Part shown: one piece after another, positions 11,608 to 35,615 of the stretch
How the letters are laid out: each line of letters opens with the position of its first letter
Position numbering within the stretch: the first letter of the stretch is position 1
IMG/VR virus record: IMGVR_UViG_3300009163_000019
Origin: a virus
Reading direction: 5' to 3' (one strand)
DNA length: 64,000 nucleotides
Translations under genes and position numbers: made by a program
The notes under the pieces: generated by a model
The model's database searches: none
What the model was told of the DNA's origin: nothing
What the model saw: the letters and a program-made list of their open reading frames with translations, nothing else

Positions 11608-11625
11608 AAAATAAAAAAATAAATT

Positions 11626-11856: not shown

Positions 11857-11859
11857 TAT

Positions 11860-12014: not shown

Positions 12015-12016
12015 CA

Positions 12017-15725: not shown

Positions 15726-15726
15726 T

Positions 15727-17387: not shown

Positions 17388-17823
17388 CAAGTTAATAACA
17401 TGTGATAAATGTAAAGCAGAAGTTTCTTGCTACGCAACTCCGATTAATGAATTTCATAATTCATATACATGTTTAAATTGTGGTTTTCATACCAATGATT
17501 TAATGGTAGAAGGAGAATTTAATTTTGAAGAATATGAAGCAGAACTTCCAGAACTCTATAAAGATATAAAATATAAAGATGAAAAAAATAGAGTGTGGTA
17601 TCCTCAAGTAATTAATGTAGAAGGTAAAGGAACAGTGTTTGTTAACGGAACATCAAAAGATGATTGGAAATGGAGTGGAATTAAAAGTGTGTCATTAACA
17701 CAAGAAGAAAAACAAAGCGGAAGATTCAAAGATAAAGAGTATAAATCAGATTCAAAAACTTTAGAAAATTTTGGAGACAATTATTATGATGCCTGCGACT
17801 ATGTAGGATTTTTTGATATATAA
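17380..17823 (+). CDS. Zinc-ribbon-containing hypothetical protein
   Basis: CDKC...CLNCG. Confidence 0.6.
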   Translation: MIDKLITCDKCKAEVSCYATPINEFHNSYTCLNCGFHTNDLMVEGEFNFEEYEAELPELYKDIKYKDEKNRVWYPQVINVEGKGTVFVNGTSKDDWKWSGIKSVSLTQEEKQSGRFKDKEYKSDSKTLENFGDNYYDACDYVGFFDI

Positions 17824-17832
17824 AATAGAGTT

Positions 17833-18450: not shown

Positions 18451-18452
18451 TT

Positions 18453-19817: not shown

Positions 19818-20791
19818 GTAAAAAAAGAGCATTAATAACAGGAATCAATGGAATGGATGGTTCACATCTAGCAGACTTTTTATTAGCAAGAGGAGACTAT
19901 GAAGTATTTGGTCTTGAAAGAAGGAAAGCAACGTACTATTCACCAAATATTTCACATTTAGCCGGTAAAATCACGCTCTTAAAAGGAGATCTTTCTGATC
20001 AAAATTCTTTATTAAGAGCAATAAAAGAATGTGAACCTCATGAAGTTTATAATTTAGGAGCTCAATCATTTGTTGGAGAAAGCTGGGCAATGCCAGAACA
20101 AACATCTGATATTACTGGTTTAGGTGCATTAAGAGTACTTGAGGCAATTCGAGAGAATGGTAATAAAGAGATTAAATTTTATCAAGCATCATCTTCTGAG
20201 ATGTTAGGTAAAAAAGGTGGAGTTGCAAATGAAGAAACTACATTTTATCCGTGCTCTCCTTATGGAGTATCTAAACTATATGCTCATTGGATTACTAAAA
20301 ATTATAGGGAGTCTCATGGCATGTTTGCCGTAAGTGGTATATTATTTAATCACGAATCAGAAAGAAGAGGACATGAATTTGTTACTCGTAAAATTTCTGA
20401 TGGTGTAGCTAAAATTCATTTAGGTTTAGCAGACTATATTTCATTAGGTAATTTAGATGCTTCTAGAGATTGGGGATATGCGCCTGATTATGTAGAAGGG
20501 ATGTGGATGATGATGCAACAAGAAAAATCAGATGACTATGTTTTAGCAACAGGAGAAACACATTCAATTAGAGATTTTTTAGATAATGCATTTAATTATG
20601 TAGGTATACAAGACTGGTCTAAATATATTAAAACAGATCCTAAATTCCTTAGACCAGTAGAAGTAAGTTATCTTTTAGGAGACGCAAGTAAAGCTAAAAA
20701 TGTTTTAGGTTGGAAACCAAAAACACCTTTTAAAGATCTAGTAAATATTATGGTAAAAAACGATATTAAATTATTAACTCAAAATAAATAA
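19814..20791 (+). CDS. gmd: GDP-mannose 4,6-dehydratase
   Basis: ALITGINGMDGSHL, AQSFV, SPYGVSK, FNHES, FVTRKI, RDWG. Confidence 0.92.
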   Translation: MSKKRALITGINGMDGSHLADFLLARGDYEVFGLERRKATYYSPNISHLAGKITLLKGDLSDQNSLLRAIKECEPHEVYNLGAQSFVGESWAMPEQTSDITGLGALRVLEAIRENGNKEIKFYQASSSEMLGKKGGVANEETTFYPCSPYGVSKLYAHWITKNYRESHGMFAVSGILFNHESERRGHEFVTRKISDGVAKIHLGLADYISLGNLDASRDWGYAPDYVEGMWMMMQQEKSDDYVLATGETHSIRDFLDNAFNYVGIQDWSKYIKTDPKFLRPVEVSYLLGDASKAKNVLGWKPKTPFKDLVNIMVKNDIKLLTQNK

Positions 20792-20797
20792 ATCAAA

Positions 20798-22021
20798 ATG
20801 AAAGTTGTAACATTAGGAGATCACTATGTATCCGATTTTATTAAATCAGAATCTGATTATCAAGGAAGAAAAAAGTATAGTTTAGATTTAGTATTAAATG
20901 AAGAAATAGGTGCGCCGCATCTTACTGAAATACCACCTTCAGAAACAATGTGGGGACAATATTGGTATCGTTCTGGAATTAATGCTACAATGACTAAAGA
21001 ACTTGGAAACATTGTTGAAGAAATTAAATCAAGAATTAAATATAAAGAAGGTGATGTTTGGTTAGATATTGCATGCAATGATGGAACTTTACTTAAACAA
21101 GTACCTAATGAGTTTATCAAATTAGGTATAGATCCAGCAGACGATACATTTGTTGCAGAATCATCTAAAGTAGCTAACTCTATTATACAAGATTACTTTA
21201 GTTACGACGCGTATAAAAAAACAGGATGTGGAGATAAAAAAGCAAAAGTAATAACTACAATTGCTATGTTCTACGATTTATTAGATCCTAATCCATTTAT
21301 TAAAGATGTTATTAAAGTATTAGACGATAACGGAATATGGGTATTGCAATTGTCTTATACTCCCTTAATGATTAAACAATTAGCGTTTGATAATATTTGT
21401 CACGAGCACGCTTACTATCATTCAATGGAATCATTTAAAAAATTATTTCAACAACATGATCTAAAAATTGTAGATTGTAGTTTGAATGATGTAAATGGTG
21501 GTAGTTTTAGAGTTTATGTCCAAAAGAATATAGCAGATGTAACTTCATTTGGAACTAGTCCATTAAGAGACGTTTGTAATTTTAGAGTTCAATCACTACT
21601 TGATTACGAGAATGCTCATTTTAATATGAACGACATTAAGGTTTGGGAAAAATTCCAATCTGATATTGAAGAATTAAGAGAAAAAACTGTTGCCTTTATT
21701 AAGGAAGAAAAAGCCAAAGGTAAAGTTATTTGCGGATATGGTGCTTCAACCAAAGGAAATACTCTATTACAATGGTTTGGTTTAGATCATACTTTGATTG
21801 ATGCTATTGCTGAACGTTCTCCTTATAAATTCGGTTTAAAAACAATTGGAACTAACATTCCTATTATCTCAGAAGAAGAAATGAGAAAATTAAATCCTGA
21901 TTATATGTTAGTATTACCTTGGCATTTCATAGCTGAATTTATTCAAAGAGAAGACGAATATCTAAGTAATGGAGGAAAGTTTATTGTACCATGTCCTAAA
22001 TTTGAAATAATAGGAAAATAA
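20798..22021 (+). CDS. NDP-sugar C-methyltransferase
   Basis: YWYRSG, LDIACNDG, ICHEH, GYGASTKGN, LPWHF. Confidence 0.85.
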   Translation: MKVVTLGDHYVSDFIKSESDYQGRKKYSLDLVLNEEIGAPHLTEIPPSETMWGQYWYRSGINATMTKELGNIVEEIKSRIKYKEGDVWLDIACNDGTLLKQVPNEFIKLGIDPADDTFVAESSKVANSIIQDYFSYDAYKKTGCGDKKAKVITTIAMFYDLLDPNPFIKDVIKVLDDNGIWVLQLSYTPLMIKQLAFDNICHEHAYYHSMESFKKLFQQHDLKIVDCSLNDVNGGSFRVYVQKNIADVTSFGTSPLRDVCNFRVQSLLDYENAHFNMNDIKVWEKFQSDIEELREKTVAFIKEEKAKGKVICGYGASTKGNTLLQWFGLDHTLIDAIAERSPYKFGLKTIGTNIPIISEEEMRKLNPDYMLVLPWHFIAEFIQREDEYLSNGGKFIVPCPKFEIIGK

Positions 22022-23550
22022 TGAAGATATATTTTATTAATAGCAAGAAAAAAAATTGCGGAGTATATCAGTATGGTCTTAGAATATGGGACTCTGTAAA
22101 AGATTCTAATTTAGATATTGAATATTTTGAAATAGAAAATATTGAAGAATTTAATAAATTAGATTTCAATGGAGTAGATATTATATTTTTTAATTGGATA
22201 GAAGGTGGATCTACAGGACCATTTGGATGGTACAATTATGTTGTAGCATTAGAATTAAAAGCTAAATATAATATAACTACAGTAACAGTAATGCACACTC
22301 CTGATTTTAGTAGTACTGTTTTTGACTATTATATAGATCAAAATACTGTTAATAGTGGTTTTATTAGGCCTCTATATAATTATGATATTTCAAAACCTAA
22401 ACTTAAAAATGATATTGTTAATATAGGATCTTTTGGATTTGCAGGAGATCACAAAGGTTTTGATGATATAGTGGCAATGGTTAATGAACAATACGATCAA
22501 GCACAAATTAATTTACATATAACTAATGCACATTACGGTGACGCAGAAGGTATACATCAACATAGAATAATAGATAAAATACAGGCTATAGAAAGAAAAC
22601 CTGAAATTAAATTAAATATTACTAGTGAATTTCTTACTAATGAACAAATATTAGATTTTGTTTATAAAAATGATATCATCATACTAGGATATAAAGGAAC
22701 TAGAGATATATCAGGAGTTCCAGACTATGCCATATCTGCAAATACACCAATTGGAGTTACTAGCGTAGGAAGTTTTAATCATGTATATAAAGAAGATATA
22801 GATATCTCTTTGCATACAATACCAGAAATATTAGAGTATAATCTAAAAAACAATTATCCAGAGGTTTTAAGAAAAGAATGGTCTAGAGAAAATATGATTT
22901 CTTGTTTTGAAAATCTTATGAAACTAATATATGAAAATATGGAATTAAAATCTTATTCTCAAGTTTGTCAAGATCAATTTGCTCTAAAATTAATTGGCAA
23001 GAATGGATATTTTTTAGATCTAGGAGCTGGATGGGATCCTTCATTAGTAAATAGTAATACTTTACTATTAGAAGAAAATGGTTGGAATGGAGTGTGTATA
23101 GAAGGAAATCCACAGTCTGCTGAAAGACGTAGAGAAGCTGCTATAAGAGCAGAAGTACTTTGCGTATATGTTCCTCAAACAACAATATCAGAAATATTAA
23201 AATCTGTAAATGCACCTAAAGTTATAGATTATGTTTCTTTAGATATAGAACCTATGACAATAATAGGATTAGAAAATTTTCCTTTTGATGAATATGAATT
23301 TAAAGTATTAACTTTTGAACACGATTTTTATGTTCATGGACCTAAACAAAAAGATGATGCTCATGAAATATTAACTAAACAAGGATACATTAGATTATGT
23401 AATAATGTAAATATTCCTGAAGAGGGTGGATTAGGTTTATATTTTGAGGATTGGTATATTAATCCAAAATATTTTTCTAAAGAATTCATTGAGCAAAATA
23501 CATTCAGTGAAATTTTAGGTCCTAGTGTTATAAAAAAATTAAAAAAATGA
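22021..23550 (+). CDS. GT-B-like domain fused to an FkbM-type methyltransferase
   Basis: CGVYQYG, GSFGF..HKG; C-terminal SQVCQD, FLDLGA, SNT.LLE, IDYVSLDIE. Confidence 0.75.
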   Translation: MKIYFINSKKKNCGVYQYGLRIWDSVKDSNLDIEYFEIENIEEFNKLDFNGVDIIFFNWIEGGSTGPFGWYNYVVALELKAKYNITTVTVMHTPDFSSTVFDYYIDQNTVNSGFIRPLYNYDISKPKLKNDIVNIGSFGFAGDHKGFDDIVAMVNEQYDQAQINLHITNAHYGDAEGIHQHRIIDKIQAIERKPEIKLNITSEFLTNEQILDFVYKNDIIILGYKGTRDISGVPDYAISANTPIGVTSVGSFNHVYKEDIDISLHTIPEILEYNLKNNYPEVLRKEWSRENMISCFENLMKLIYENMELKSYSQVCQDQFALKLIGKNGYFLDLGAGWDPSLVNSNTLLLEENGWNGVCIEGNPQSAERRREAAIRAEVLCVYVPQTTISEILKSVNAPKVIDYVSLDIEPMTIIGLENFPFDEYEFKVLTFEHDFYVHGPKQKDDAHEILTKQGYIRLCNNVNIPEEGGLGLYFEDWYINPKYFSKEFIEQNTFSEILGPSVIKKLKK

Positions 23551-24206
23551 TACATTCAAATTCAGAAGCAGATACTCCTAATTTAGCATTTGATGCATTA
23601 TACGAAAATTTTTTAAAAAAAATAGATGAAAATATTTCTTCACATGAATTAGTAGTTGTTGATGTTGGTGCTGGACCTCCTTTTGATTATTCAAATATGA
23701 AAATTTTTAGAGAAATGGGAGCTAAAGTAGTTTGTATAGATCCTATGCCTAGTCATATAAAAATGTTTGAAAGTGTAGGACTCCCTATTTTACAATATGC
23801 AGTAATAGAAGACGATTCATTATCAGAAGTTTTATTTAGAGAATTTCCTAACTCAGGACATCGTGGATTAGCTGGATCTACAATAGCTTCTGTATCAGAT
23901 TCACTTAAAGGATGCGAGCCACATTTAGGAGATCCGGTTCATTACATGGTCCCAGCTAAATCTTTAACCTCTATACTAAAACAACATCACCCAGAAATTA
24001 CTGACATAGACGTATTAGATATAGATACTGAAGGAAATGAAATTGGGATATTAAAAGGATTGGATTTAAATTATTATAAACCAAAAGTATTAATAATTGA
24101 AAACATATATGTAGAAACTAGTGGTTATGATGATTATTATAAATCAATAGGATACACTAAATATGCTAGATGTACACATAATGATATTGTTATAAGAAAT
24201 ATATAA
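23547..24206 (+). CDS. FkbM family methyltransferase
   Basis: VVDVGAG, IDVLDIDTEGNE, PKVLIIE. Confidence 0.85.
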   Translation: MIHSNSEADTPNLAFDALYENFLKKIDENISSHELVVVDVGAGPPFDYSNMKIFREMGAKVVCIDPMPSHIKMFESVGLPILQYAVIEDDSLSEVLFREFPNSGHRGLAGSTIASVSDSLKGCEPHLGDPVHYMVPAKSLTSILKQHHPEITDIDVLDIDTEGNEIGILKGLDLNYYKPKVLIIENIYVETSGYDDYYKSIGYTKYARCTHNDIVIRNI

Positions 24207-24207
24207 T

Positions 24208-24459
24208 ATGGAAACTATAGGTAACTTAATTGATAAATTGACAATTGCTAATATTCGTATTTGGATGGCAGAAGATATTAAAAGAGATAAGAATGCCACT
24301 GATAAACAAATAGCTGATGCTACTAAAATTACTAATACAGCAAATTCGTATAGGACAGATCTAATACAGGAAATAGATGAGACTATAAATGAAATGATTA
24401 GCACAGGAAAATTACAAAAATTATATAAACAAGGATCAAGTAAGATGTATGGTAAATAA
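24208..24459 (+). CDS. DUF4254-like helical protein
   Basis: TIGNLIDKLTI...IWMAED...RTDLIQEID. Confidence 0.6.
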   Translation: METIGNLIDKLTIANIRIWMAEDIKRDKNATDKQIADATKITNTANSYRTDLIQEIDETINEMISTGKLQKLYKQGSSKMYGK

Positions 24460-25249
24460 TTTTTTAATGGGAGGTAAGTTAGGGGATTTTTTACATGCAA
24501 TGTTTGCAGTAAAGCATATCTGTAAAGAACAGAATATAAAAGCTAACATCTATATGTATGATATAGGTTGGGAATTTGGTATAAATAACACCTACTCAGA
24601 ACTTAAAACTATAATGTTAAATCAAGATTATGTAAATTCATTTAATATATTAGAAAATTACGAATTAGATCAAGAACAAACATCAGAAAAAAATAGTCCT
24701 ATAAAAATATTTAATCCTGTTTTATTATCTGAGGGATATATTGATTTAGGGTCATATATAAGGTCTCCTTGGTTATATAAAACTTGCTGGTCAGAATTAT
24801 ATAGTAAAACATTTAATTTTTCTATTGGTAAAGATTACTCTTGGATAAAATATAATACTATAGATGAAAAATTTATAGGAAAAGTATTAATTCATAGGAG
24901 AAATAATCCTATTAGAATGAATAATAATTTTCCATATTTAGAAATATTAGAAAGATATAAAGACAATATTTTATTTATATCTTCAAGTGATAAAGACTAT
25001 GAAGTATTTCCATATAAAGAAAATATACCGTTTTTAAAAGTTAATACACTAGATCAATGGTTTACTGCAATTAATTCATGTTCTTTAATAATATCCAATT
25101 TATCTTCCCCAGCAGTTATGGCACATGCAATAGATAAATTAAGAATAATAGAACTTCCAAATGTTATAGATATAATTCATACTGTTGGAGAAGAGAAATA
25201 TTCTAAAAATATACACTGGTATTTAGATAATGATCATCATAATTTATAA
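24449..25249 (+). CDS. GT9-like glycosyltransferase
   Basis: GKLGDFL; AINSCSLIISNLSSPAVMAHA. Confidence 0.6.
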   Translation: MVNNFLMGGKLGDFLHAMFAVKHICKEQNIKANIYMYDIGWEFGINNTYSELKTIMLNQDYVNSFNILENYELDQEQTSEKNSPIKIFNPVLLSEGYIDLGSYIRSPWLYKTCWSELYSKTFNFSIGKDYSWIKYNTIDEKFIGKVLIHRRNNPIRMNNNFPYLEILERYKDNILFISSSDKDYEVFPYKENIPFLKVNTLDQWFTAINSCSLIISNLSSPAVMAHAIDKLRIIELPNVIDIIHTVGEEKYSKNIHWYLDNDHHNL

Positions 25250-25251
25250 AA

Positions 25252-26094
25252 ATGAAAAAATTTTTAATTAGTACGCATGGATTTAATATGGGAATTGGGG
25301 GTTTAAAAGTACTGCATAAACTATGCCATCTCTTAAATGAAAAAGGATACGATGCTTATTTAATACCATTAAATTTTAATGAACCTTTTGGCATTTATGA
25401 AAATTATAATGTTAAAATGGTTACCCAAGAAGTATTAGACAATTTAGAAAATGTAGTTGTCATATATCCTGAGAGTTGGTATGGAAATTATTTAAATGCA
25501 CCAAATGTTGTTAGGTGGATGATAGGACCTCCTAGCGAAGTCCATATAAATACCTGGTCAGATAAAGATTTATGGTTTTGGTATATTCCATATTATATTA
25601 CAGAAAAATATAATAAAAATAAAAATAATGTATTGTATATAGGAGAACAACATAGAGATATATTTTATGATCAAAAATTATATAGATCAGGATCTTGTTG
25701 GTCTTTACGTAAAGCACAAAATATAGTAAAGCCAGAAGATTATATACATCCACAAGATAGTACTTTTATACCGTATAATGCAGCAGGTGATTTAATAGGT
25801 CTATCAGATTTATTTAACTCAAAAGATACTTTTTATTGTTATGACAATTATACTTATATTAGCATACAGAGTTTAATGTGTAATACAGATACTGTTATAA
25901 TCCCCTCTAAAAAGACTAAACAAGAATTTCAAAATGGATATGAACTAAATAAATATTTAGCTTATGGTATAGATGATTTACCAAGAGCTAAAAGTATTAG
26001 AAATGAATTCTTTGATCATTTAAATAGGATAGAAGAAAATACAGAAAAACAATTAGATAAGTTTATAGAAATATGTTATGACTACTTTAAATGA
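25252..26094 (+). CDS. WavQ-like glycosyltransferase-associated protein
   Basis: GGLKVLHKLCHLLN, VVIYPE, NYLNAPNVVRW. Confidence 0.65.
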   Translation: MKKFLISTHGFNMGIGGLKVLHKLCHLLNEKGYDAYLIPLNFNEPFGIYENYNVKMVTQEVLDNLENVVVIYPESWYGNYLNAPNVVRWMIGPPSEVHINTWSDKDLWFWYIPYYITEKYNKNKNNVLYIGEQHRDIFYDQKLYRSGSCWSLRKAQNIVKPEDYIHPQDSTFIPYNAAGDLIGLSDLFNSKDTFYCYDNYTYISIQSLMCNTDTVIIPSKKTKQEFQNGYELNKYLAYGIDDLPRAKSIRNEFFDHLNRIEENTEKQLDKFIEICYDYFK

Positions 26095-27097
26095 TTTTAG
26101 TTTTTTAATAGTTACATTAGCAAAAGATGTAGAGAGGCTTCATCTAGCGTATGAATCAATAAGATCCGCATATCCAGATAATGAGATCGTTATTGTTTAT
26201 GATAATATAAATGATATACAACTTAATAAAGAAGATAAAAATCTTATAGAAATATATACTGATAAGAGAGTCTATGTTAGTGGTGGTTATAATCTAGCGC
26301 TTAAACATAGTACTAAAAAATGTTTTGTATTATTCCACGATGATACTTTTTTAGCTAAAGGGTTTTTAGAAAATATAATACCGTATATATCAGAAAAAAC
26401 TTTTTGTAATTTTAGTACAGTAGAACCTCCAATATACAATGATCCTAATACATTTCAAAAACCAATAAAAGATTTTGGGAGGGATCCAAAGACATTTGAT
26501 CTCTATAAATTTAATGAGTTTTGTGAAGAGCATATAAAAAAATTACCTGCCCAAACTGCAGAGTCTCCATTTGGAGGTTTCTTTATGGCCGGATATAAAA
26601 GTTCTATGGAAAGTGTTGGAGGTTTTGATGAGTATTTTCAACCTTATTTTTATGAGGATTCTGATTTAATGATAAGACTTCATGAAGCAGGATATAATTT
26701 TATCCACGTATTTGGAAGTCTGGTATATCACATGGGTAGTTTAACTTCTAGAGCCGGCCAAGAAGGTATAGATGCATCAATAATAACTAGAAATTTATTT
26801 ATAAAAAAATGGAAAACTCCTTTTGAGTATATTAAACATTATACACTATCAAATGGAATACCATATAAAAAAATACCTGTACAAATTATATGTGAAAATT
26901 GTAAACCTGAATTATCAGAATATATAAGTTTAATAAGTGAATCAGGAAGTGATATTAAAATATTCTTTGATCAAAATAAATTAACTCAACAAGATTTTGA
27001 ATATTTGCAAGCACTTCCGTATATATTACAATCTATAGAAGAACCAGGTGATTATGAAATTGGATGTTTAAAAGTAAAATATAAAGTAAATGAATAA
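26078..27097 (+). CDS. GT2 glycosyltransferase
   Basis: FHDD, GGFDEYF, YEDSDL, VYH. Confidence 0.85.
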   Translation: MTTLNDFSFLIVTLAKDVERLHLAYESIRSAYPDNEIVIVYDNINDIQLNKEDKNLIEIYTDKRVYVSGGYNLALKHSTKKCFVLFHDDTFLAKGFLENIIPYISEKTFCNFSTVEPPIYNDPNTFQKPIKDFGRDPKTFDLYKFNEFCEEHIKKLPAQTAESPFGGFFMAGYKSSMESVGGFDEYFQPYFYEDSDLMIRLHEAGYNFIHVFGSLVYHMGSLTSRAGQEGIDASIITRNLFIKKWKTPFEYIKHYTLSNGIPYKKIPVQIICENCKPELSEYISLISESGSDIKIFFDQNKLTQQDFEYLQALPYILQSIEEPGDYEIGCLKVKYKVNE

Positions 27098-28058
27098 AAT
27101 AGTAGTATCTAATTTAATGAGGGCAAAAAATAAACAATCTTTTTTTGCACTACATCAACTACAGTCTAAAATAAGAAGCGTCTATCCAGATGTGCAAATA
27201 GATTTTCACATTCTGTGGGATAATGAAAACGAATTAAATCTTAAAGATGAAGAATATTGGAGTAATTTAATTGATAATAAAATAGAAAATTTATATTCCT
27301 ATAATAAAACTTTCTTTGATAACTATGTAGAAGAATATTATGGTTTAGACTATAAAGATAAATTTAAATTATGGAAACCAATATATTTCATATTAATGGC
27401 CCACTATTTAAGAAGAGTTAAGTTAGAGCATTACTATTTAATATATGATGATGATGTTTTAATTAATGATGATTTTAAACATATAACAGATTTATTAATA
27501 GAAAGAATACCTTTCGGTATAACAGAACCTGTAAATCCCGGATGTGATAAGGTATTATTTAAAAAATTACTAGATTTATATGGAATAGATTTTCAAAACA
27601 TATACCTTACTAGAAATCCAAAAGCTTTGGGATTTAATGCAGGATTTCAGGGTATGGATTTAAGTATATATGATAATTTTTTATCTACTGATAGATTTGA
27701 ATTATTACTAAATATATTTGAATATCAATCAATATATGATGAAAATGGAAATGAGATATGGGATAATAGAAGATTTTTTATAGATACCCAACAACAATCT
27801 TTTATGGGATTAATGAATACAGCAATATCTAAAAAAGATATTCATATATTAGATCCTGAAAAATATTTTGTTGTACCTAATTTTGGGCCACATCCAAAAT
27901 ACGGGCAATTAGATCCTGATGACGAACCAGATGGCGGTTGGAGATGGGGATTAGATTCTAAAATAACACACTTTATAGGACACACAAGAGGTAAAGGAAA
28001 GCCAAAACAATTTTTAGATAGGGTAGATCAATATTTAATAGAGAATAAATTTATGTAG
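27090..28058 (+). CDS. GT-A fold (GT8-like) glycosyltransferase
   Basis: YDDDVL, FNAGF, QQS, ITHFIG. Confidence 0.6.
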   Translation: MNKIVVSNLMRAKNKQSFFALHQLQSKIRSVYPDVQIDFHILWDNENELNLKDEEYWSNLIDNKIENLYSYNKTFFDNYVEEYYGLDYKDKFKLWKPIYFILMAHYLRRVKLEHYYLIYDDDVLINDDFKHITDLLIERIPFGITEPVNPGCDKVLFKKLLDLYGIDFQNIYLTRNPKALGFNAGFQGMDLSIYDNFLSTDRFELLLNIFEYQSIYDENGNEIWDNRRFFIDTQQQSFMGLMNTAISKKDIHILDPEKYFVVPNFGPHPKYGQLDPDDEPDGGWRWGLDSKITHFIGHTRGKGKPKQFLDRVDQYLIENKFM

Positions 28059-28059
28059 T

Positions 28060-29016
28060 ATGAAAAAAGTAGTTTATGTAACAGGTTGTTTAGGTCTTAT
28101 AGGAAGTCATATAACAAGAGCTTGTTTAAATAAAGGTTGGTATGTTAAAGGAGTTGATTCAATTACTTATGCCGCAAATGAAGATTTACTCATTGAATTT
28201 ATTTCTAATCCTAAATTTTCTTTTGTACACGCTGATATAAATGATCTTAAATTTTTATATGAATGTGATTACATTATTAATACTGCAGCAGAAACTCATG
28301 TAGGTAATTCAATTGCTAATTCAGATAAGTTCATAACTTCCAATATTAATGGAGTTCATAATTTGTTAGAGCTATTAAGAAATTATAGACAAGAGACAAC
28401 TAAAGTTCCTGTATTTTTACATTTTTCTACAGATGAAGTATATGGTGATATTGAAGAAGGAGCACACACAGAAAGTGACCTTCTTAAACCATCTAATCCA
28501 TATTCAGCTACTAAAGCTGCGGCAGATCAATTAATATTAGCTTGGAGCCGAACATATAAAATTCCTTATGTTATAGTAAGACCAACAAATAATTATGGTG
28601 TGGGTCAATATGTAGAAAAACTTATTCCTAAAGCTTGTAAGTACTTAACATTAGATAGAAAAATACCTCTTCATAATGGTGGATCACCAGTACGTAATTG
28701 GTTACATGCTGGAGATACTGCAGAAGCAATAATTAAAATAATAGAATCTAAAGTTAAAAATGAAATATTCAATATTGCAGGAGGATATGAGCAAACAAAT
28801 TTAGATACTATAAAGAAAGTTATTCATAATTATACAGGATTAAGTACATTTAATGTAGATAATTATATTGATACAGACTATTCTAGACCGGGACAAGACG
28901 TGAGGTACGCATTAGATGATAGTAAACTTAGAAATCTTGGATGGAAACCTGAAAAAAAGTTTGATATAGAAATTCATGAAATAGTTAGATACTATAAATC
29001 AAAATTTATATGGTAA
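28060..29016 (+). CDS. rfbB: dTDP-glucose 4,6-dehydratase-like enzyme
   Basis: TG..GLIG, AAETHV, STDEVYG, PYSATKA, NNYG, EKLIP, RPGQDVRY. Confidence 0.88.
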   Translation: MKKVVYVTGCLGLIGSHITRACLNKGWYVKGVDSITYAANEDLLIEFISNPKFSFVHADINDLKFLYECDYIINTAAETHVGNSIANSDKFITSNINGVHNLLELLRNYRQETTKVPVFLHFSTDEVYGDIEEGAHTESDLLKPSNPYSATKAAADQLILAWSRTYKIPYVIVRPTNNYGVGQYVEKLIPKACKYLTLDRKIPLHNGGSPVRNWLHAGDTAEAIIKIIESKVKNEIFNIAGGYEQTNLDTIKKVIHNYTGLSTFNVDNYIDTDYSRPGQDVRYALDDSKLRNLGWKPEKKFDIEIHEIVRYYKSKFIW

Positions 29017-29846
29017 AAATCAGTAAAGAATTAGCAGAGCAAATGTATCAATTTAATGTTGTTCATGGACAATACTTAGTTGGAGAATCAATAAATCATT
29101 TAGATGTATTTTCAAAAAGCATAGAAATCTCAGATGATTTACAAATAGTTTGTGTTACAGAAAAAAACTCTCCTAGTTTTTTAAAAGGAAAAAAAATAAT
29201 AGGAAGACCAATTTATTGGCAAAGTAATTATGAAACTTATACTAGATGGAGTACAAAAATTATAGGATTATATGATTATTTTAAAGATAATTATAATACA
29301 TTACCAAAATATATAATGTATTTAGATTCTTATGATACTATGCTTATTAAAGATATTTTGAATCCTAAAGAAATGCTAGACTATTATGGATGTAAAGTAC
29401 TTTTTAATTCTGAAAATAAGTTTTCAGGGCTTGGATATCCAAACCCAGACGGATATTCAAACTACTGGCAATCAATGCAACATCATTTTGACTCCTACAA
29501 AGAACTAACTGAAAAAAAATATGGAAATCCAGGACCTGAACCAGGTCTTAATGCCGGTGTTTTTTTAGGAGAAAAAGAATTTATGATTGAGATGATTACA
29601 ACTATGTATGAATATCTTATTGGAAGCCCTGCAAATGGATTTCCATATGGTACAGGTGCAGATCAGGAAGTATTTAAATATTTTCAAATGCAAAATTTTG
29701 ATAGTGTAGGTTTAGACATATTTAATAAGTATTTTTATTGGGGATGCGCTGGGTATTTAAATCCTGGTCCTGATGACGATTTTGGAATAGATTATTTTAG
29801 AATCAAATATAAAAATCATTACGAATCTAAAATAAATAATAATTAA
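29010..29846 (+). CDS. PLOD/procollagen-glycosyltransferase-like GT-A protein
   Basis: MYLDSYD, KVLFNSE, LNAGVFLG, DQ. Confidence 0.6.
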   Translation: MVKISKELAEQMYQFNVVHGQYLVGESINHLDVFSKSIEISDDLQIVCVTEKNSPSFLKGKKIIGRPIYWQSNYETYTRWSTKIIGLYDYFKDNYNTLPKYIMYLDSYDTMLIKDILNPKEMLDYYGCKVLFNSENKFSGLGYPNPDGYSNYWQSMQHHFDSYKELTEKKYGNPGPEPGLNAGVFLGEKEFMIEMITTMYEYLIGSPANGFPYGTGADQEVFKYFQMQNFDSVGLDIFNKYFYWGCAGYLNPGPDDDFGIDYFRIKYKNHYESKINNN

Positions 29847-29886
29847 TTTAATAATAAATAATATTTTATTATTTAAAAAAAAAGTT

Positions 29887-31674
29887 ATGCTTAAAAAAGT
29901 AAGTGATCTTATTGCTGAGTTTTTAAAAGAAAAAGAAATTGATGTTGTATTTGGTATTATAGGATCTGCCAATTCACATATATTTGATTCAATTAATAAA
30001 TTAGGATACACTAAAATTATTAATACTCATCATGAACAAGCAGCAGTGCTTGCAATGGGAGCTTACTATAGAGCATCTGGAAAATTATCTGCTGCAATAG
30101 TAACTGCCGGCGGTGGTGTAACAAATGCTGTTACAGGCGTTGTAAGTAATTGGGCTGATTCTATTCCTGGAATTATTATATCTGGACAAGAAAATTATAA
30201 CTATGTTAGTACACAAGAAAACCTACGAATGTATGGTACTCAAGGATTAAATATAACTAAGATGGTTAAAGATGTTACTAAATTGGCTATACCTTTTGAT
30301 GATAATTCTGATATACAAACTACACTAGAAATACTTGATAAAGTAACAATCGAGGGTAGACCCGGTCCAGTATGGTTAGATATTCCAATGAATTTACAGG
30401 CAAAAATGGTTCAAGAAAGAAATTGGAAATTTAATGTGCCAAAGAAAAAATACTTTAATGCTGAAGATATTATAGATGAAATTAATTTATCAAAAAGACC
30501 GGTAGTAATAGGAGGGAATGGAATTAGATTATCAAAATCTAAAAAAATTTTCCAAAAATTTATAGATATATCGAGAATTCCAACCCTGTTATCATGGTCA
30601 GGTATAGATCTGCTAGATGATAATAATGAAAACTTTTTTGGAAGATTTGGTTTATATGGACAAAGAGCCGCAAACTTTATTGTACAAAATGCAGATCTAG
30701 TTATTGTATTAGGAAGTAGATTATCTCTACCACAAGTTGGATATGATTTTAGTCAGTTTGCAAGAGGCGCGAAGATAATAATAGTCGACATAGATGAACT
30801 AGAAGGGGCTAAATATCAAGTATATAAACATATAAAAGAAGATTGCTTTAATGTAATATCAGGCATTATAGAAAAATCTTATATGATGTGGGGATATAAA
30901 CAAGAATGGGTATCATATTGTCAAGTTATAAAAAATAAATATCCTCTGATAGAAAACTATCACAAAGATAATGAATATCTGAACTCATATAGATTTATAA
31001 CTAAGATGTCCGATTATTTAAAAGATGATCATATAATAGTAACTGATATGGGAACGGCTTTACTCAGTGGACATCAGAATATAAAAATAAAACAAGATCA
31101 AGTAATGTTTACATCTCAAGGTCTTGGTGAGATGGGTTATGGTCTTCCTGGTGCATTAGGAGCTGCTCTTGCATGCCCAAACAAGCCTGTGCTATGTATG
31201 AATTGTGATGGTGGTATTATGATGAATTTACAAGAGTTACATACTATAATTGAAAATGAATTACATAATATAAAAATCATTATATTCAATAATGATGGTT
31301 ATTTAATGATCAAGCATACACAAAAAATGCTATTCAAAGGAGACTATGTTAGTGTAAATAAAAAAACAGGAATTGGATTGCCTAATTTTAGTAAGCTATT
31401 ACCTGCATTCGGATATGATTATTATGAATTAAAAGATTGGGATAGTTTAGATTCTACAATGAATAATTTTTTAAATAATTCTAAAGCTGCTGTATTAGAA
31501 GTATTCATGGATCCTGAGCAAGACTTTATTCCTAAAGTAAAAGGAGTTCTAAAAGAAGATCTAACTATATTAGCTCCACCAATTGAAGAGATGTCTCCAC
31601 TACTTTCATTAGATGAAGTTAGAAGTAATATGATAATAGACATTAGTGAAAAAAGTAAAATAATAAAGAGATGA
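29887..31674 (+). CDS. ThDP-dependent acetolactate-synthase-like enzyme (YerE-type sugar C-branching enzyme)
   Basis: HHEQAA, GRPGPVWLDIP, GEMGYGLPGA, CDGG...NN; located in an NDP-sugar cluster. Confidence 0.85.
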   Translation: MLKKVSDLIAEFLKEKEIDVVFGIIGSANSHIFDSINKLGYTKIINTHHEQAAVLAMGAYYRASGKLSAAIVTAGGGVTNAVTGVVSNWADSIPGIIISGQENYNYVSTQENLRMYGTQGLNITKMVKDVTKLAIPFDDNSDIQTTLEILDKVTIEGRPGPVWLDIPMNLQAKMVQERNWKFNVPKKKYFNAEDIIDEINLSKRPVVIGGNGIRLSKSKKIFQKFIDISRIPTLLSWSGIDLLDDNNENFFGRFGLYGQRAANFIVQNADLVIVLGSRLSLPQVGYDFSQFARGAKIIIVDIDELEGAKYQVYKHIKEDCFNVISGIIEKSYMMWGYKQEWVSYCQVIKNKYPLIENYHKDNEYLNSYRFITKMSDYLKDDHIIVTDMGTALLSGHQNIKIKQDQVMFTSQGLGEMGYGLPGALGAALACPNKPVLCMNCDGGIMMNLQELHTIIENELHNIKIIIFNNDGYLMIKHTQKMLFKGDYVSVNKKTGIGLPNFSKLLPAFGYDYYELKDWDSLDSTMNNFLNNSKAAVLEVFMDPEQDFIPKVKGVLKEDLTILAPPIEEMSPLLSLDEVRSNMIIDISEKSKIIKR

Positions 31675-32522
31675 TAATTAAAGCTGGAATTATAGGAACA
31701 GGAAATATTGGAACAGATTTATTATTAAAAATATTAAAGACAAAGGAAATCTATCCAGTAATATTTGCAGGTCGTAGAATGGATTCAGATGGAATTAAAA
31801 TTGCAGAAAGTAAAAGAGTCCCAGTAACTGATCAAGGTATTAATTATTTTATAAAAAATCCTAAGTGCTGTGATGTAGTTTACGATTGTACAAGTGCGGC
31901 GGATGCTATTGAGCATGCTAAAATATTTAAAGATCAAGGAATTAAAGTAATAGATCTAACACCAGCAAAAGTTGGACCTTTATGTGTTCCTAGTATAAAT
32001 CCATCTATAATATTAGAAGAGTCTAATGTCAATATGATTACGTGCGGAGGACAAGCCTCTATTCCTATGCTTAATTTAATATCTAAATATTGTGATAATT
32101 TAGAATATATAGAAGTTGTTTCACAAATTGCCTCTAAGAGTGCAGGCATGGCAACTAGAATTAATGTAGATTCTTATATTCATACAACAGAAAGAGCAAT
32201 TAGACAATTTACTGGTTGCGATAATTGTAAAGTTATACTTAATTTAAATCCTGCAGAGCCATGTGTTGATATGCAGACAACAATGTTTATTAAATTTAAA
32301 ACAATTGATTTTAATGGTTTAGTTAAAGAGATTTATAAAAAAGTAGAAGAGTTACAAAAGTATATTCCATATTACGAATTAGTCCTTCCACCAGTTATTA
32401 ATGATGATGTATTAGTTTTAAGTATTAAAGTGAAAGGATCTGGGGATTATCTTCCTGAATATGCAGGTAATTTAGATATAATTAATTGTGCTGCTATAGA
32501 AATAACTAAAAATTTATTTTAA
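31671..32522 (+). CDS. mhpF: Acetaldehyde dehydrogenase (acylating), DmpF/MhpF family
   Basis: GTGNIGTDL, IDLTPA, NMITCGGQA, YAGNLDI. Confidence 0.93.
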   Translation: MIIKAGIIGTGNIGTDLLLKILKTKEIYPVIFAGRRMDSDGIKIAESKRVPVTDQGINYFIKNPKCCDVVYDCTSAADAIEHAKIFKDQGIKVIDLTPAKVGPLCVPSINPSIILEESNVNMITCGGQASIPMLNLISKYCDNLEYIEVVSQIASKSAGMATRINVDSYIHTTERAIRQFTGCDNCKVILNLNPAEPCVDMQTTMFIKFKTIDFNGLVKEIYKKVEELQKYIPYYELVLPPVINDDVLVLSIKVKGSGDYLPEYAGNLDIINCAAIEITKNLF

Positions 32523-33520
32523 TGGGTAAAATAATAATAACAGATTCATCTTTAAGAGATGGCAATCATGCAGTAAAACATACTATAAGTTTAGATAGTA
32601 TTAAAAGATATTGCCAATTTGCAGATAGTGCAGAAATTCCAATTGTAGAAGTTGGGCACGGAAATGGATTAGGAGCTTCATCTTTATTAATTGGTCTATC
32701 ACCATATACTGATAAACAAATATTAACTACGGCAAGAGAGAACTTAAAAACAAGTAAATTAGGAATACATATTATCCCAGGAATTGCTACTATTAAAAAA
32801 GATATAGATCAAGCAATTGATTTAGGTGTAGATGTATTTAGAATTGCTACCCATTGTACTGAAGCAACACTATCCAAATCTCATATTGAATATTTAAGAA
32901 ATAAAGATAAAACTGTATTCGGAGTGCTGATGATGAGTGCTTTAGCTGATGTAGAGACGTTGGCTAAAAATGCTAAGATCATGGAAGAGTACGGCGCAGA
33001 TGCCGTTATTATAATGGATTCTACAGGAACATATTTACCTTCTGATGTTAAGGAAAGAATGGATGAATTAAGTTACACTTTAGATATTGATTTTGGTTTT
33101 CATGCACATGATAATTTAGGTTTGGCAACGGCTAATTCATTAGTAGCTGCTCAATGTGGAGCAAAATATATAGACGCTTGTATTAGAGGATTTGGAGCCG
33201 GAGCCGGCAATGCTCATTTAGAAATGTTAATTCCTGTTTTAGAAAAAGCAGATTTTGATATTGATATAGATTTCAAAAAAGTTATTATAGAAGCAGATAG
33301 TGTTATGGATTACTTAGTACCTAGTGCACCAATATCTACACCAGTAAATATATTAACAGGACTAAATAGATTATTTTCAGGATTTGAAAAACCTATTATC
33401 AAAGCGTCTAAATTATTTGGTATTGAATATTCATCTTTAATATTTGAACTTGGAAATAGAAAGTTAGTTGCTGGCCAAGAAGATCTTATATTGGAGGTAG
33501 CACAAAAATTAAAGAAGTGA
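32522..33520 (+). CDS. dmpG: 4-hydroxy-2-oxovalerate aldolase, DmpG/MhpE family
   Basis: DSSLRDGNH, EVGHGNGLG, ATHCTEA, HAHDNLG, GAGAGN, VAGQED. Confidence 0.93.
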   Translation: MGKIIITDSSLRDGNHAVKHTISLDSIKRYCQFADSAEIPIVEVGHGNGLGASSLLIGLSPYTDKQILTTARENLKTSKLGIHIIPGIATIKKDIDQAIDLGVDVFRIATHCTEATLSKSHIEYLRNKDKTVFGVLMMSALADVETLAKNAKIMEEYGADAVIIMDSTGTYLPSDVKERMDELSYTLDIDFGFHAHDNLGLATANSLVAAQCGAKYIDACIRGFGAGAGNAHLEMLIPVLEKADFDIDIDFKKVIIEADSVMDYLVPSAPISTPVNILTGLNRLFSGFEKPIIKASKLFGIEYSSLIFELGNRKLVAGQEDLILEVAQKLKK

Positions 33521-34335
33521 AAATACTAGTTACAGGAGCTAATGGCTTTATAGCAAAGAATTTAATCCCTGGTTTAAAAGATCACAATGTGATAGAAATT
33601 TCCAGGCAAAATTTAGATTTAAATAATAGAATTGAAGTAGATAGATTTTTTAAATACACTTCATTTGATATAGTAATGCACTGTGCTATATCTGGAGGTA
33701 AAAGAGATATAGTAGATGGTCCTGAAGTTTTATGGGAAAATTTAAGTATGTTTTATAATTTATTAAATAACAAAAGTAAATTTAAAAAACTGATTAACTT
33801 TGCATCAGGAGCAGAACTTGATCGATCACAATCAATTGATCTAGTTTATCCAGATTTTAGAGATAGATATCCTTTAGATTATTATGGTATGTCCAAGAAT
33901 ATTATTTCTAGAATAGTAGACTCAGAAAAAAATATGCACAACATTAGAATATTTAATGTTTTTGGGGATAATGAAAATGATCATAGACTAATTAAATCTA
34001 GTATTAAAAAATATATTAATAAAAAAGATATCATTATACACCAAGATAAATTAATGGATTTTTTTTATATAGAAGATCTAATATCTCTAATTAATTATTA
34101 CATTGATAATAACTCTTTTCCTAAAGATATTAATGCAGTATATAAAACAAAATATTATTTGTCAGAAATAGCAGGAATAATAAATAATTTATCAGACTAT
34201 AAAGTAAATATTAAAATAGAACAGCCAGGTTTTTCTAGTTCATATATAGGAAAGGGAATAATAACAGAAATATTACCTATAAAATTTAAAGGTTTAGAAA
34301 CAGGAATTACAGAAATATATAATAAATTAAAATGA
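33517..34335 (+). CDS. NAD-dependent epimerase/reductase (extended SDR)
   Basis: ILVTGANGFIA, SGAE, YGMSK. Confidence 0.85.
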   Translation: MKILVTGANGFIAKNLIPGLKDHNVIEISRQNLDLNNRIEVDRFFKYTSFDIVMHCAISGGKRDIVDGPEVLWENLSMFYNLLNNKSKFKKLINFASGAELDRSQSIDLVYPDFRDRYPLDYYGMSKNIISRIVDSEKNMHNIRIFNVFGDNENDHRLIKSSIKKYINKKDIIIHQDKLMDFFYIEDLISLINYYIDNNSFPKDINAVYKTKYYLSEIAGIINNLSDYKVNIKIEQPGFSSSYIGKGIITEILPIKFKGLETGITEIYNKLK

Positions 34336-35615
34336 AAAAAATAAGTTTTATAATCAATGCTTCTAATAATACTTTAGATCATATAAAGTTATTACTTAAA
34401 TCTTTAAAACAAAATCTACACAATAAAGAGCACGAAATCTTAATATTTGTAGATTCAGATAATGAAGGATTGACAGACTATTTAAGAAGTCAAAAATTAA
34501 ATTTTCATGATCTTAAAATAATAACACATAAAATAAAACCTTGTATAGGATACTCTAGGAATAGTAACCTATTAGTTGAACTAGCTAAACACGACATAGT
34601 AAGTTATCTTCAAAGTGATATGGTTATATCTACTAACTATGATCAAGATCTATTATCAGAGATAGAAGATAATTGTATCCTCAGCGCCACCAGAGTCGAA
34701 CCACCATTACATGGTTATTCAGACAAGGTAATTACAATGGATTTCGGAACCGATCCAAATTCATTTAATATGGATTCCTGGAATAGTTATGCAAATAAAA
34801 ATAAAGAGAATAAATCTATAGAATACTTTTTTGCTCCATTTACTTTTTATAAAAAAGTTTGGCTAAGCATAGGAGGATATGATACTCTATTTAGAAGATC
34901 TAGAGAGGATTCAGACTTACTTCAAAGATTTATACAATCTGGTATTAAAATTAAACAAACGTTTAAAGCTAATGTATATCATTTTAGTTGCGTAAGTTCT
35001 AGAGGAAAAAATTGGTTTGATCAGAATAATGAAATAGCAAAAAAAAGAACCGAGCTACAACAGATTGCAGATGGTATTGAGCTAAGAAGATTTATAAAAA
35101 AGTGGGGAGGTTTTAATCACGGAGAAAGCACACTATTAAAATTAGATATGGATCTAGTTATCAAAGATGATCGTGAATTAAATCCAATGTTTTTAGCGCA
35201 AGTAGAAGTTTATTTTTCAAGGGTTTGGCTAAAGACAGAAGAGCATAGAGAAAAGTGCATCAATCTATTTTCAAGAGAACATGATCCTGCAAATGAATTA
35301 TTAGGTTTTACAAATCAAGATTGGGAGGAGTCAAAGAAATTTTATAACCAAACAAATTTTGCTAAAATTTATAATGTAGGTACACCTGAGGATTATAATA
35401 TTAAAGTTGAAGTTGATTTTACTAATGTAGATCCAAAAACAGATGTGTTTATACAAAATGTAACGCGCCTGGGTCAAATTATAGAACCTTATGAACCAGG
35501 AATATATGAACTAGGATCAGCTAAAATAGAGGTCAGGACTGTGGTAAACTTAGCTCAGGATCAAATCGTTATAAATAATCCTCCATTTGATTATTCACTA
35601 TTATCAATAGAATAA
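34332..35615 (+). CDS. GT2 glycosyltransferase (paralogue of 26078)
   Basis: QSD, RVEPP, GGYD..F, REDSD, VYHF. Confidence 0.85.
   Translation: MKKISFIINASNNTLDHIKLLLKSLKQNLHNKEHEILIFVDSDNEGLTDYLRSQKLNFHDLKIITHKIKPCIGYSRNSNLLVELAKHDIVSYLQSDMVISTNYDQDLLSEIEDNCILSATRVEPPLHGYSDKVITMDFGTDPNSFNMDSWNSYANKNKENKSIEYFFAPFTFYKKVWLSIGGYDTLFRRSREDSDLLQRFIQSGIKIKQTFKANVYHFSCVSSRGKNWFDQNNEIAKKRTELQQIADGIELRRFIKKWGGFNHGESTLLKLDMDLVIKDDRELNPMFLAQVEVYFSRVWLKTEEHREKCINLFSREHDPANELLGFTNQDWEESKKFYNQTNFAKIYNVGTPEDYNIKVEVDFTNVDPKTDVFIQNVTRLGQIIEPYEPGIYELGSAKIEVRTVVNLAQDQIVINNPPFDYSLLSIE

Follow-up and report, generated by a model that had tools for sequence, protein, structure and literature searches.

The results showed that four overlapping genes, which span 29887-34335 on the plus strand of a 64,000-nucleotide stretch of viral DNA (the window, from IMG/VR record IMGVR_UViG_3300009163_000019), encode a ThDP carboligase, a DmpF-type enzyme, a DmpG-type enzyme and an SDR, are followed by a GT2 glycosyltransferase gene, and are likely to be a viral version of the module for branching of the erwiniose type. 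What is new is the presence of the enzyme set for this rare sugar type in a virus, the frequency of related copies among phages and algal giant viruses, and the reliance of the set on precursors that the host would supply; since the scheme itself was published in 2022 (Steitz et al., PMC9306805), the novelty lies in the viral setting and not in the chemistry. In the plant pathogen Pectobacterium atrosepticum SCRI1043, the erwiniose module consists of contiguous genes for ErwE (ThDP), ErwF (reductase), ErwI (BphI-like) and ErwJ (BphJ-like), and the donor of ErwE is (4R)-4-hydroxy-2-oxopentanoate rather than pyruvate (PMC9306805). Judged by this published description, the phage set has the same four contiguous enzyme types in association with an E1 3-dehydratase and a glycosyltransferase, and would share an aldolase-made 4-hydroxy-2-oxopentanoate donor, a 4-keto-3,6-dideoxy acceptor and a subsequent ketoreduction, while it differs in being viral, in having a 4,6-dehydratase of the dTDP (RmlB) type instead of the CDP type, and in that no cytidylyltransferase, E3 or membrane export machinery was detected in the phage.

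The element which hosts the cassette is a real phage, an uncultured, contractile-tailed myovirus with a major head protein, tail sheath, RNR, DNA polymerase and GroEL, of which 136 kb of sequence was covered (CheckV completeness of the record, 82%). It carries a 21-kb glycan island (14283..35615, plus strand) of 22 same-strand, mostly overlapping genes, identified by ORF list and Pfam, whose products include two GT1 and four GT2 glycosyltransferases, sugar-nucleotide enzymes, methyltransferases and several unknowns. As the first-pass annotation had described, the ThDP, DmpF, DmpG and SDR genes overlap inside this island, and the junctions through the cassette to the GT2 gene are ATGA, TAATG, GTGA and ATGA (four overlaps in four junctions). 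A simple hydropathy scan gave a TM-like segment in none of the 22 island proteins, and a search of the 136 kb (record rated 82% complete) for nucleotidyltransferases (PF00483), FNR-type reductases (PF00175), Fer2 ferredoxins and flavodoxins gave no match.

Upstream of the cassette, the enzymes expected for the acceptor sugar were identified on the same strand. The gene at 18453..19817, previously called an RfbH E1, encodes an E1/RfbH-type PMP-dependent NDP-4-keto-6-deoxyhexose 3-dehydratase with a [2Fe-2S] Cys motif; it passes the RfbH equivalog model NF011936 (457.5 bits in comparison to a cut-off of 423), matches the E1 structure 3BCX in the PDB with 335 bits, and retains both SFYPAHH, in which His replaces Lys, and the CC...CYC...C motif. 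Among the DegT-family neighbours in related loci, 24 of 62 are of the E1 type and have the Cys motif, the other 38 are of the ColD type, and the position of E1 His220 is His in all 62 and Lys in none, so that a 3-deoxygenated 4-keto acceptor looks general. The 4,6-dehydratase that had been proposed at 28060 was confirmed as RmlB-type NDP-glucose 4,6-dehydratase (28060..29016), with STDEVYG and YSATK motifs, a TIGR01181 score of 287.7 bits (below the cut-off of 365) in comparison to 68 bits for the CDP-type model, and dTDP-glucose 4,6-dehydratases as the best PDB matches (2HUN, 227 bits); in most related loci its gene immediately precedes the ThDP gene, and the enzyme probably catalyses the first committed step. 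The overlap partner of E1 in the window is, however, not RmlB but a GDP-mannose 4,6-dehydratase (Gmd, 19814..20791; PF16363, 402 bits; TIGR01472, 397 bits, just below the cut-off of 415; SSSEMLG and YGVSK motifs), whose start overlaps the E1 stop (ATGA), and this was counted against the main reading as regards the nucleotide and the sugar configuration.

The first cassette gene (29887..31674, plus strand) encodes a YerE-like ThDP carboligase of the JanthE type with the CDG motif, 595 aa long with Pfam TPP N, M and C domains, which is equivalent to ErwE. Among solved structures, the closest to it is JanthE of Janthinobacterium sp. HH01 (8RPH, 544.6 bits; further structures 8RPI and 8RPJ), in comparison to 242.8 bits for PpYerE (5AHK) and 225.9 bits for E. 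coli AHAS I. The alignment to JanthE runs end to end, and the two enzymes have CDG, Y268, P293, Y297 and K567 in common, while V121 of JanthE is Thr in the phage enzyme and a clear sugar-pathway context belongs to the phage enzyme. The NCDGG motif containing the rare CDG is shared with JanthE, and CDG was found in all of 78 homologues, viral and Flavobacterial, in comparison to GDG in E. coli IlvB and IlvI. JanthE accepts 4-hydroxy-2-oxovalerate, but also pyruvate and other 2-oxoacids (PMC12188165), and the donor is thus unreadable from the ThDP enzyme alone.

The second and third genes encode an aldolase-dehydrogenase pair. The acylating acetaldehyde dehydrogenase of the DmpF/BphJ/ErwJ type (31671..32522, plus strand; 283 aa; TIGR03215, 321.6 bits in comparison to a cut-off of 282) retains the NAD motif GTGNIGTDL and, within ITCGGQA, the catalytic Cys. 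The 4-hydroxy-2-oxovalerate (class II pyruvate) aldolase of the DmpG/BphI/ErwI type (32522..33520, plus strand; 332 aa; TIGR03217, 324.5 bits in comparison to 286) belongs to a His87/Phe290 subfamily and contains HMGL-like and DmpG_comm (communication) domains, Arg12, Asp13, His16 and both metal-binding His. The pair resembles BphI/BphJ and DmpG/DmpF of aromatic meta-cleavage in fold, communication domain, catalytic Arg/His, metal ligands and catalytic Cys, and in having adjacent, overlapping genes. It differs from BphI/BphJ in its stereo-control residues, BphI Leu87 and Tyr290 being replaced by His83 and Phe285, and in that no ring-cleavage genes accompany it, and it probably runs in the synthetic direction. 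Across the 71 cassette aldolases, the residue at BphI Leu87 is always His and that at Tyr290 is Phe, His or Met, in contrast to Leu (Ile in one case) and Tyr in 20 canonical aldolases. BphI is strictly 4S, whereas its L87N/Y290F variant is 4R-specific (PMC3962088); the residues of the phage aldolase thus resemble those of the engineered 4R-specific variants and would fit the 4R donor of ErwE. His87 aldolases also occur outside sugar clusters (three of the five proteobacterial members that were sampled, including one next to an aminotransferase).

The fourth gene (33517..34335, plus strand) encodes a short extended SDR (272 aa; PF01370, 85 bits; TGANGFIA and YGMSK), for which no close solved relative was found in the PDB and which is a putative side-chain ketoreductase equivalent to YerF/ErwF. 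Its stop overlaps (ATGA) the GT2 gene (34332..35615, plus strand; PF00535), which is kept after the SDR in many loci with 40-68% identity, and whose product is a candidate transferase for the branched sugar.

The gene order of the cassette recurs in most of 77 IMG/VR loci and is therefore not due to chance. Most phage-type loci have the order RmlB-ThDP-DmpF-DmpG-SDR, the SDR gene comes after the module in most loci, and of 81 related loci, 72 have DmpF or DmpG adjoining the ThDP gene. The ThDP copies lacking DmpFG (five viral, one from a Flavobacterium MAG) form one clade with an SH-aLRT of 94, just below 95 in a quick tree, and in its viral members the SDR gene directly follows the ThDP gene. 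These phage loci look like true analogues of the yersiniose type and like a natural control. In Yersinia pseudotuberculosis, yersiniose A is likewise formed when YerE, with ThDP, transfers an acyl group to C4 of a 4-keto-3,6-dideoxyhexose and YerF carries out the reduction, but the acyl group comes from pyruvate, giving a C2 branch, and YerE works without an aldolase or dehydrogenase partner. Such a C2 branch, with DmpF and DmpG doing another job (acetaldehyde supply or removal, or another metabolite), is improbable for the window: although JanthE, the closest characterised relative, accepts pyruvate and related phages have ThDP-SDR pairs alone, DmpF and DmpG here share overlaps with the ThDP and SDR genes, their association with ThDP holds across the loci as counted above, the DmpFG-free enzymes stand apart with their own conserved residues (e.g., Tyr418 to Val), and ErwE, with the same gene arrangement, rejects pyruvate (PMC9306805). 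An order in which an acetyl branch from pyruvate is first attached by the ThDP enzyme and is then extended on the sugar by the aldolase, with acetaldehyde, is chemically conceivable and was raised by Steitz et al., but is very unlikely, being rejected for ErwE because pyruvate was not accepted (PMC9306805), and the phage aldolase still has the Arg, Asp and His with which aldolases of free pyruvate bind this substrate, along with their metal ligands.

A further ThDP clade of 31 rows, all with DmpF or DmpG, shows 51-54% identity to the window enzyme, the order DmpF-ThDP, DmpG on the opposite strand and a ColD-type dehydratase; three tested records each contain several NCLDV capsid genes, and the clade probably corresponds to the prasinovirus 'acetolactate synthase', 'acetaldehyde dehydrogenase' and 'oxovalerate aldolase' genes (OtV, MpV-1), which have long been known and were interpreted as serving amino-acid synthesis and the detoxification of aldehydes (PMC5371798). 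The suggestion that the pathway is new to viruses has to be qualified accordingly. Auxiliary branched-chain amino-acid synthesis combined with aldehyde detoxification or aromatic catabolism, which agrees with that literature, with the JGI name 'acetolactate synthase' for the homologues and with AHAS being the best-scoring NCBIfam models, is scarcely credible for the window, since all AHAS equivalog cut-offs are missed widely (e.g., 315 in comparison to 738 bits), a very long branch separates the ThDP family from E. coli IlvB/IlvI, and the gene is embedded among sugar genes next to DmpF, in an island whose genes include neither a regulatory subunit, IlvC or IlvD nor, as noted earlier, ring-cleavage enzymes.

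From gene identities, catalytic motifs, synteny and co-occurrence, we infer the following route for the erwiniose-type module. A host NDP-hexose would be converted to NDP-4-keto-3,6-dideoxyhexose by the RmlB-type 4,6-dehydratase together with the Fe-S E1 3-dehydratase, and electron carriers of the host would re-reduce E1. The DmpF-type enzyme would form acetaldehyde from acetyl-CoA, and the aldolase would join it to pyruvate to give 4-hydroxy-2-oxopentanoate, probably 4R. The ThDP carboligase would decarboxylate this donor and transfer a 3-hydroxybutyryl unit to C4 of the acceptor, and the SDR would reduce the new side-chain ketone, so that the predicted product is NDP-4-C-(1,3-dihydroxybutyl)-3,6-dideoxyhexose, with the constitution of erwiniose and its four-carbon side branch. 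The first-pass annotation had proposed this donor, transfer and reduction route, and JanthE closeness, synteny, the His-type 3-dehydratases and the 4R-type residues support it at the sequence level; as it is identical to the published ErwJ/ErwI/ErwE/ErwF scheme, the route appears sound and its chemistry not new. In agreement with the same annotation, neither cytidylyltransferase nor E3 was found in the 136 kb; because these and a CDP-type dehydratase were not found, the acceptor may differ or depend on the host. The GT2 and the other soluble island glycosyltransferases would build a cytoplasmic glycan, most likely on phage proteins, and LPS is probably not the target because membrane export machinery is absent.

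Three further genes of the island, all on the plus strand, were annotated. Two proteins had no Pfam match and are leads only: that of 27090..28058, whose gene is kept beside RmlB in many related loci, has a GT8-like glycosyltransferase fold (ESM Atlas structure rows of GT8 families, TM 0.59-0.63), and that of 29010..29846 is PLOD-GT-like (GT_PLOD clusters, score 0.97; structure TM 0.65-0.69). The gene at 20798..22021 encodes an NDP-hexose C-methyltransferase of the TylC3 type (PF08484, 154.5 bits, and PF13489), which probably serves a second, methyl-branched sugar.

The four genes of the cassette were recovered as plus-strand open reading frames with defined family assignments. The ThDP enzyme (29887-31674, 595 aa) carries PF02776, PF00205 and PF02775 as N-terminal, central and C-terminal domains, all above their cut-offs, and is followed by an acylating acetaldehyde dehydrogenase of DmpF type (31671-32522, 283 aa; TIGR03215, 321.6 bits against a cut-off of 282) which retains the NAD motif and the catalytic Cys (ITCGGQA), a 4-hydroxy-2-oxovalerate aldolase of DmpG type (32522-33520, 332 aa; TIGR03217, 324.5 bits against 286) which has the PF07836 communication domain and retains the Arg/Asp/His triad and two metal-binding His residues (pattern RDH..HH), and an extended SDR (33517-34335, 272 aa) with TGxxGxxG and YxxxK motifs. 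The junctions of the cassette overlap (ATGA, TAATG, GTGA, ATGA), and the downstream GT2 gene is joined by an ATGA overlap. The first-pass annotation had described a coupled ThDP-DmpF-DmpG-SDR set within a glycan island, and the open reading frames, family scores and overlapping junctions all agree with this. The RfbH-type E1 that it placed at 18453 (18453-19817) scored above the cut-off of the RfbH equivalog model NF011936 and aligned over its full length with the structure of the Yersinia E1, and the 4,6-dehydratase that it placed at 28060 has the expected Asp-Glu pair and Tyr-Lys.

The window corresponds to positions 58951-122950 of one 136,126-bp IMG/VR virus record with about 30% G+C, a completeness of 82% (CheckV) and nearly all genes on the same strand. 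A major head protein, a tail sheath, a ribonucleotide reductase, a DNA polymerase and GroEL are encoded outside the window, and the record is therefore that of a contractile-tailed phage. The island (14283-35615) consists of 22 densely packed plus-strand genes, among which Pfam identified at least six glycosyltransferases (two GT1 and four GT2), together with the E1/RfbH 3-dehydratase, a GDP-mannose 4,6-dehydratase (Gmd, 19814-20791), a TylC3-type C-methyltransferase (20798-22021), an FkbM methyltransferase and the RmlB-type 4,6-dehydratase (28060-29016).

A comparison with PDB showed that the best solved relative of the ThDP enzyme by far is JanthE (8RPH, 544.6 bits), followed by PpYerE (5AHK, 242.8 bits) and E. 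coli AHAS I (225.9 bits). JanthE belongs to the YerE-like enzymes, has the unusual CDG in place of the GDG motif, and accepts several 2-oxoacids as donors, including 4-hydroxy-2-oxovalerate, while its physiological substrates are not established (PMC12188165). The NCDGG motif is common to JanthE and the window enzyme, in which JanthE residues Y268, P293, Y297 and K567 are also conserved; CDG was present in all 78 aligned viral and flavobacterial homologues, and GDG in E. coli IlvB and IlvI. The reading of the gene as an AHAS, and hence as an auxiliary gene of amino acid synthesis, was rejected, as every AHAS equivalog model was missed widely (the highest score was 315 bits, and the cut-offs range from 538 to 1084). 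A phylogeny against AHAS had been suggested earlier, and in a quick IQ-TREE analysis with E. coli IlvB and IlvI as the outgroup the family of the 29887 enzyme was separated from both by a long branch with a support of 100, JanthE and PpYerE being compared through their PDB scores.

The closest described counterpart of the cassette is found in Pectobacterium atrosepticum, the erwiniose producer, where ErwE (ThDP enzyme) and ErwF (reductase) adjoin ErwI (BphI-like aldolase) and ErwJ (BphJ-like dehydrogenase) (Steitz et al. 2022; PMC9306805). For ErwE, coupling of 4-hydroxy-2-oxopentanoate to a ketone was shown; the enzyme refuses pyruvate and accepts the 4R enantiomer only, from which Steitz et al. 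deduced the order aldolase, ThDP-dependent branching and reduction (PMC9306805). The phage likewise clusters a ThDP enzyme, a BphI-like aldolase, a BphJ-like dehydrogenase and a reductase, the likeness being one of enzyme type and clustering. The proposed route from DmpFG through the ThDP enzyme to the SDR is supported, as a predicted route, by the sequence and comparative evidence, and equals the published ErwE/F/I/J scheme. The branching chemistry is already known, and novelty lies in its occurrence in a virus, in the probable reliance on host precursors and in the residue signature of the aldolase. An extension by the aldolase after the branching step was rejected because ErwE refuses pyruvate (PMC9306805), and a role in aromatic catabolism was dismissed since no ring-cleavage gene is present among the island genes.

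The aldolase carries residues that may be informative about the stereochemistry of its product. BphI is strictly 4S, and Y290F abolishes its stereo-control while L87N/Y290F makes it 4R-specific (PMC3962088). In the window aldolase, the positions of BphI Leu87 and Tyr290 are occupied by His83 and Phe285. The same His was found in 71 cassette aldolases, with Phe, His or Met, and never Tyr, at the second position, and E. coli MhpE, one homologue from Salmonella and 18 canonical aldolases drawn from a sample of 301 Pseudomonadota genomes carry Leu (one Ile) and Tyr. Five proteobacterial aldolases with 46-53% identity to the window protein have His together with Phe or Cys: two of these adjoin an E1-like gene, one of the two with a YerE-like gene nearby, another lies beside a class I/II aminotransferase, and for two no sugar or ThDP gene was identified within about 10 kb. 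The His87-type signature thus also occurs outside sugar clusters, and is hence not confined to them. The residue pattern across these sets marks a distinct and probably biosynthetic aldolase subfamily, and the His/Phe signature fits a predicted 4R product, which is the donor form that ErwE needs. In one proteobacterial genome (L121, about 8997-12165), DmpF, a His87-type aldolase and a class I/II aminotransferase are consecutive with no sugar genes nearby, a trio which may be a route to an amino acid of 4-hydroxy-norvaline type.

The supply of the acceptor sugar differs from that of Pectobacterium. The 4,6-dehydratase of Pectobacterium is of CDP type, whereas the product of 28060-29016 is of RmlB type and fits the dTDP-glucose dehydratases far above the CDP-glucose ones (68 bits for the CDP model). 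Of the Pectobacterium CDP supply set (cytidylyltransferase, CDP-glucose 4,6-dehydratase, E1 and E3), the phage has E1 only. A cytidylyltransferase and an E3 had been reported as missing, and this was borne out: no match to nucleotidyltransferases (PF00483), FNR-type reductases (PF00175), Fer2 ferredoxins or flavodoxins, and thus no dedicated E3 (AscD) partner for E1, was found in the 136 kb of the 82% complete record. Five island open reading frames have no Pfam match (22021-23550, 24449-25249, 25252-26094, 27090-28058 and 29010-29846), and none of them resembles a nucleotidyltransferase or a reductase. With these supply and reductase genes absent, both the NDP-hexose and the reducing power for E1 are probably drawn from the host. 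A precedent is SpnQ of spinosyn biosynthesis, an E1 homologue which works with general cellular reductases.

The E1 itself carries SFYPAHH, in which His stands where the Schiff-base Lys would be, and retains the [2Fe-2S] Cys ligands (CC...CYC...C), the last spacing being four residues longer. Among the 62 DegT-family genes beside a ThDP gene, all have His and none has Lys at the position of E1 His220; the Cys motif is present in 24, which are of E1 type, and absent from the other 38, which are of ColD type. A 3-dehydratase is thus the constant partner of the ThDP gene, and this supports a 4-keto-3,6-dideoxy acceptor. In most loci the ThDP gene is accompanied by RmlB, a His-type DegT dehydratase and an SDR, that is, by 4,6-dehydratase, 3-dehydratase and ketoreductase functions. 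For the window E1, which overlaps Gmd, there are two candidate 4,6-dehydratases, Gmd and the RmlB-type enzyme.

A pattern scan of IMG/VR yielded 77 loci that encode a relative with 49-80% identity, and the species-genome collection yielded only four, in three flavobacterial MAGs and one betaproteobacterial MAG. When all island proteins were compared with these loci by tblastn, the order RmlB-ThDP-DmpF-DmpG-SDR was found in most phage-type loci, often with GT2 next, and E1 lies directly upstream in several (L027, L056, L063, L018, L021, L078 and L080). DmpF or DmpG stands beside the ThDP gene in 72 of the 81 related loci. Seven loci with sufficient flank lack both. Six of these, from five viral contigs and a Flavobacterium MAG, group as a single clade in a quick tree (SH-aLRT 94), sister to the window clade, and in its five viral members the SDR comes directly after the ThDP gene. 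Searches of the rest of the Flavobacterium MAG and of three of the five viral records gave no DmpG-family gene, and this ThDP lineage has fixed residues of its own, such as Tyr418 to Val. This ThDP-SDR clade looks like a natural yersiniose-type control. In related phages of this kind (IMG/VR loci L014, L015, L016, L025 and L026), whose ThDP enzymes form a separate clade, the ThDP gene is followed directly by an SDR without DmpF or DmpG and a ColD-type dehydratase is present; their product is probably a yersiniose-type C2 branch. The Flavobacteriaceae MAG locus L078 has a nucleotidyltransferase, a dehydratase, E1, ThDP, DmpF and DmpG consecutively, beside an ABC transporter, whereas no nucleotidyltransferase was found in the 136 kb of the phage record. 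After DmpG in L078 (13632-16546), a GNAT acetyltransferase and two aminotransferases replace the SDR, and the branch ketone may there be aminated and acetylated.

With respect to the target of the glycan, a simple hydropathy scan detected no hydrophobic segment in any of the 22 island proteins, and therefore no Wzx, Wzy or polyprenyl-phosphate transferase was found in the island. A protein of 1130 aa, 51% of which is Thr/Pro/Ser with PSITPS-type repeats, is encoded on the minus strand at genome positions 132398-135790, about 9.4 kb past the window end, and is a mucin-like candidate target of the island glycosyltransferases. Taken together with the membrane-segment-free island, these observations favour a putative cytoplasmic glycosylation of phage proteins as the most likely use of the module. 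The products of 27090-28058 and 29010-29846, which flank RmlB, resemble GT8- and collagen PLOD-type glycosyltransferases in the ESM Atlas, matches which serve as leads only; PLOD-type enzymes glycosylate proteins.

Close homologues are very numerous in metagenomes, and the best 120 matches all have 71-99% identity. Among 301 sampled Flavobacteriaceae genomes, a close homologue was found in one, which is the query centre itself. The INPHARED phage collection gave no DNA match, and its protein matches were bacterial AHAS or MhpE only, in contaminated or unannotated records, so that no isolated phage there has the cassette. A 31-member ThDP clade, with DmpF or DmpG in all, includes GVMAG contigs, and each of three records tested from this clade gave three to six NCLDV capsid matches. 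In the giant-virus contigs L028-L057, L061, L072 and L074 (IMG/VR, some named GVMAG), DmpG lies on the strand opposite to a DmpF-ThDP pair, and very large multi-domain glycosyltransferases, FkbM and a dehydratase of ColD type are also encoded. Prasinovirus genes have been listed as 'acetolactate synthase' or 'thiamine pyrophosphate enzyme', with 'acetaldehyde dehydrogenase' and 'oxovalerate aldolase' in MpV-1 as well, and were interpreted as serving amino acid synthesis or aldehyde detoxification (PMC5371798, PMC12906663). This prasinovirus set is probably the same cassette as that of the giant-virus contigs. A literature search for the cassette in phages found no paper, and a 2025 review of YerE-like enzymes termed viruses unexplored (PMC12247030).

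Tentatively, and as a serious possibility rather than an expectation, these results can be joined in one reading: JanthE-type (CDG) cassettes would be mainly viral, tailed phages and giant viruses of prasinovirus type would decorate their own virion proteins (here, as the candidate, a mucin-like fibre carrying Thr/Pro/Ser repeats) with a ten-carbon branched sugar of erwiniose type, and the cassette aldolase (His87, Phe290) would represent a natural 4R-selective subfamily of class II pyruvate aldolases. If true, this would be the first acyl-branched sugar of any virus. The supported reading of the cassette as an erwiniose-type module places a rare bacterial surface-sugar pathway in viruses. It predicts a ten-carbon branched deoxysugar, so far not sought, in phage glycans and probably in prasinovirus ones, and suggests that the viral 'acetolactate synthase', 'acetaldehyde dehydrogenase' and 'oxovalerate aldolase' labels, counted as amino acid or detoxification genes (PMC5371798), are misread. 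JanthE, an enzyme of biocatalytic interest, would gain a likely physiological context, and a natural aldolase subfamily is indicated with the residues that engineers put in to invert the stereochemistry of BphI. Standard expression and assays suffice for a test, and glycans could be analysed directly in cultured prasinoviruses.

Some further features of the island were observed. The gene group at 18453-22021 makes a second island product possible, and a methyl-branched 6-deoxyhexose may therefore be made in addition. An 83-aa open reading frame (24208-24459), considered as a ferredoxin and rejected as such, encodes a DUF4254 protein with 85-87% identity across related phage loci, a conservation above that of its neighbours, and its gene always lies directly after the C-methyltransferase gene. 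The ThDP gene is preceded by a 40-bp spacer of almost pure A/T (29847-29886), which could be an internal promoter; no other gene junction between RmlB and the last GT2 has a gap of this size.
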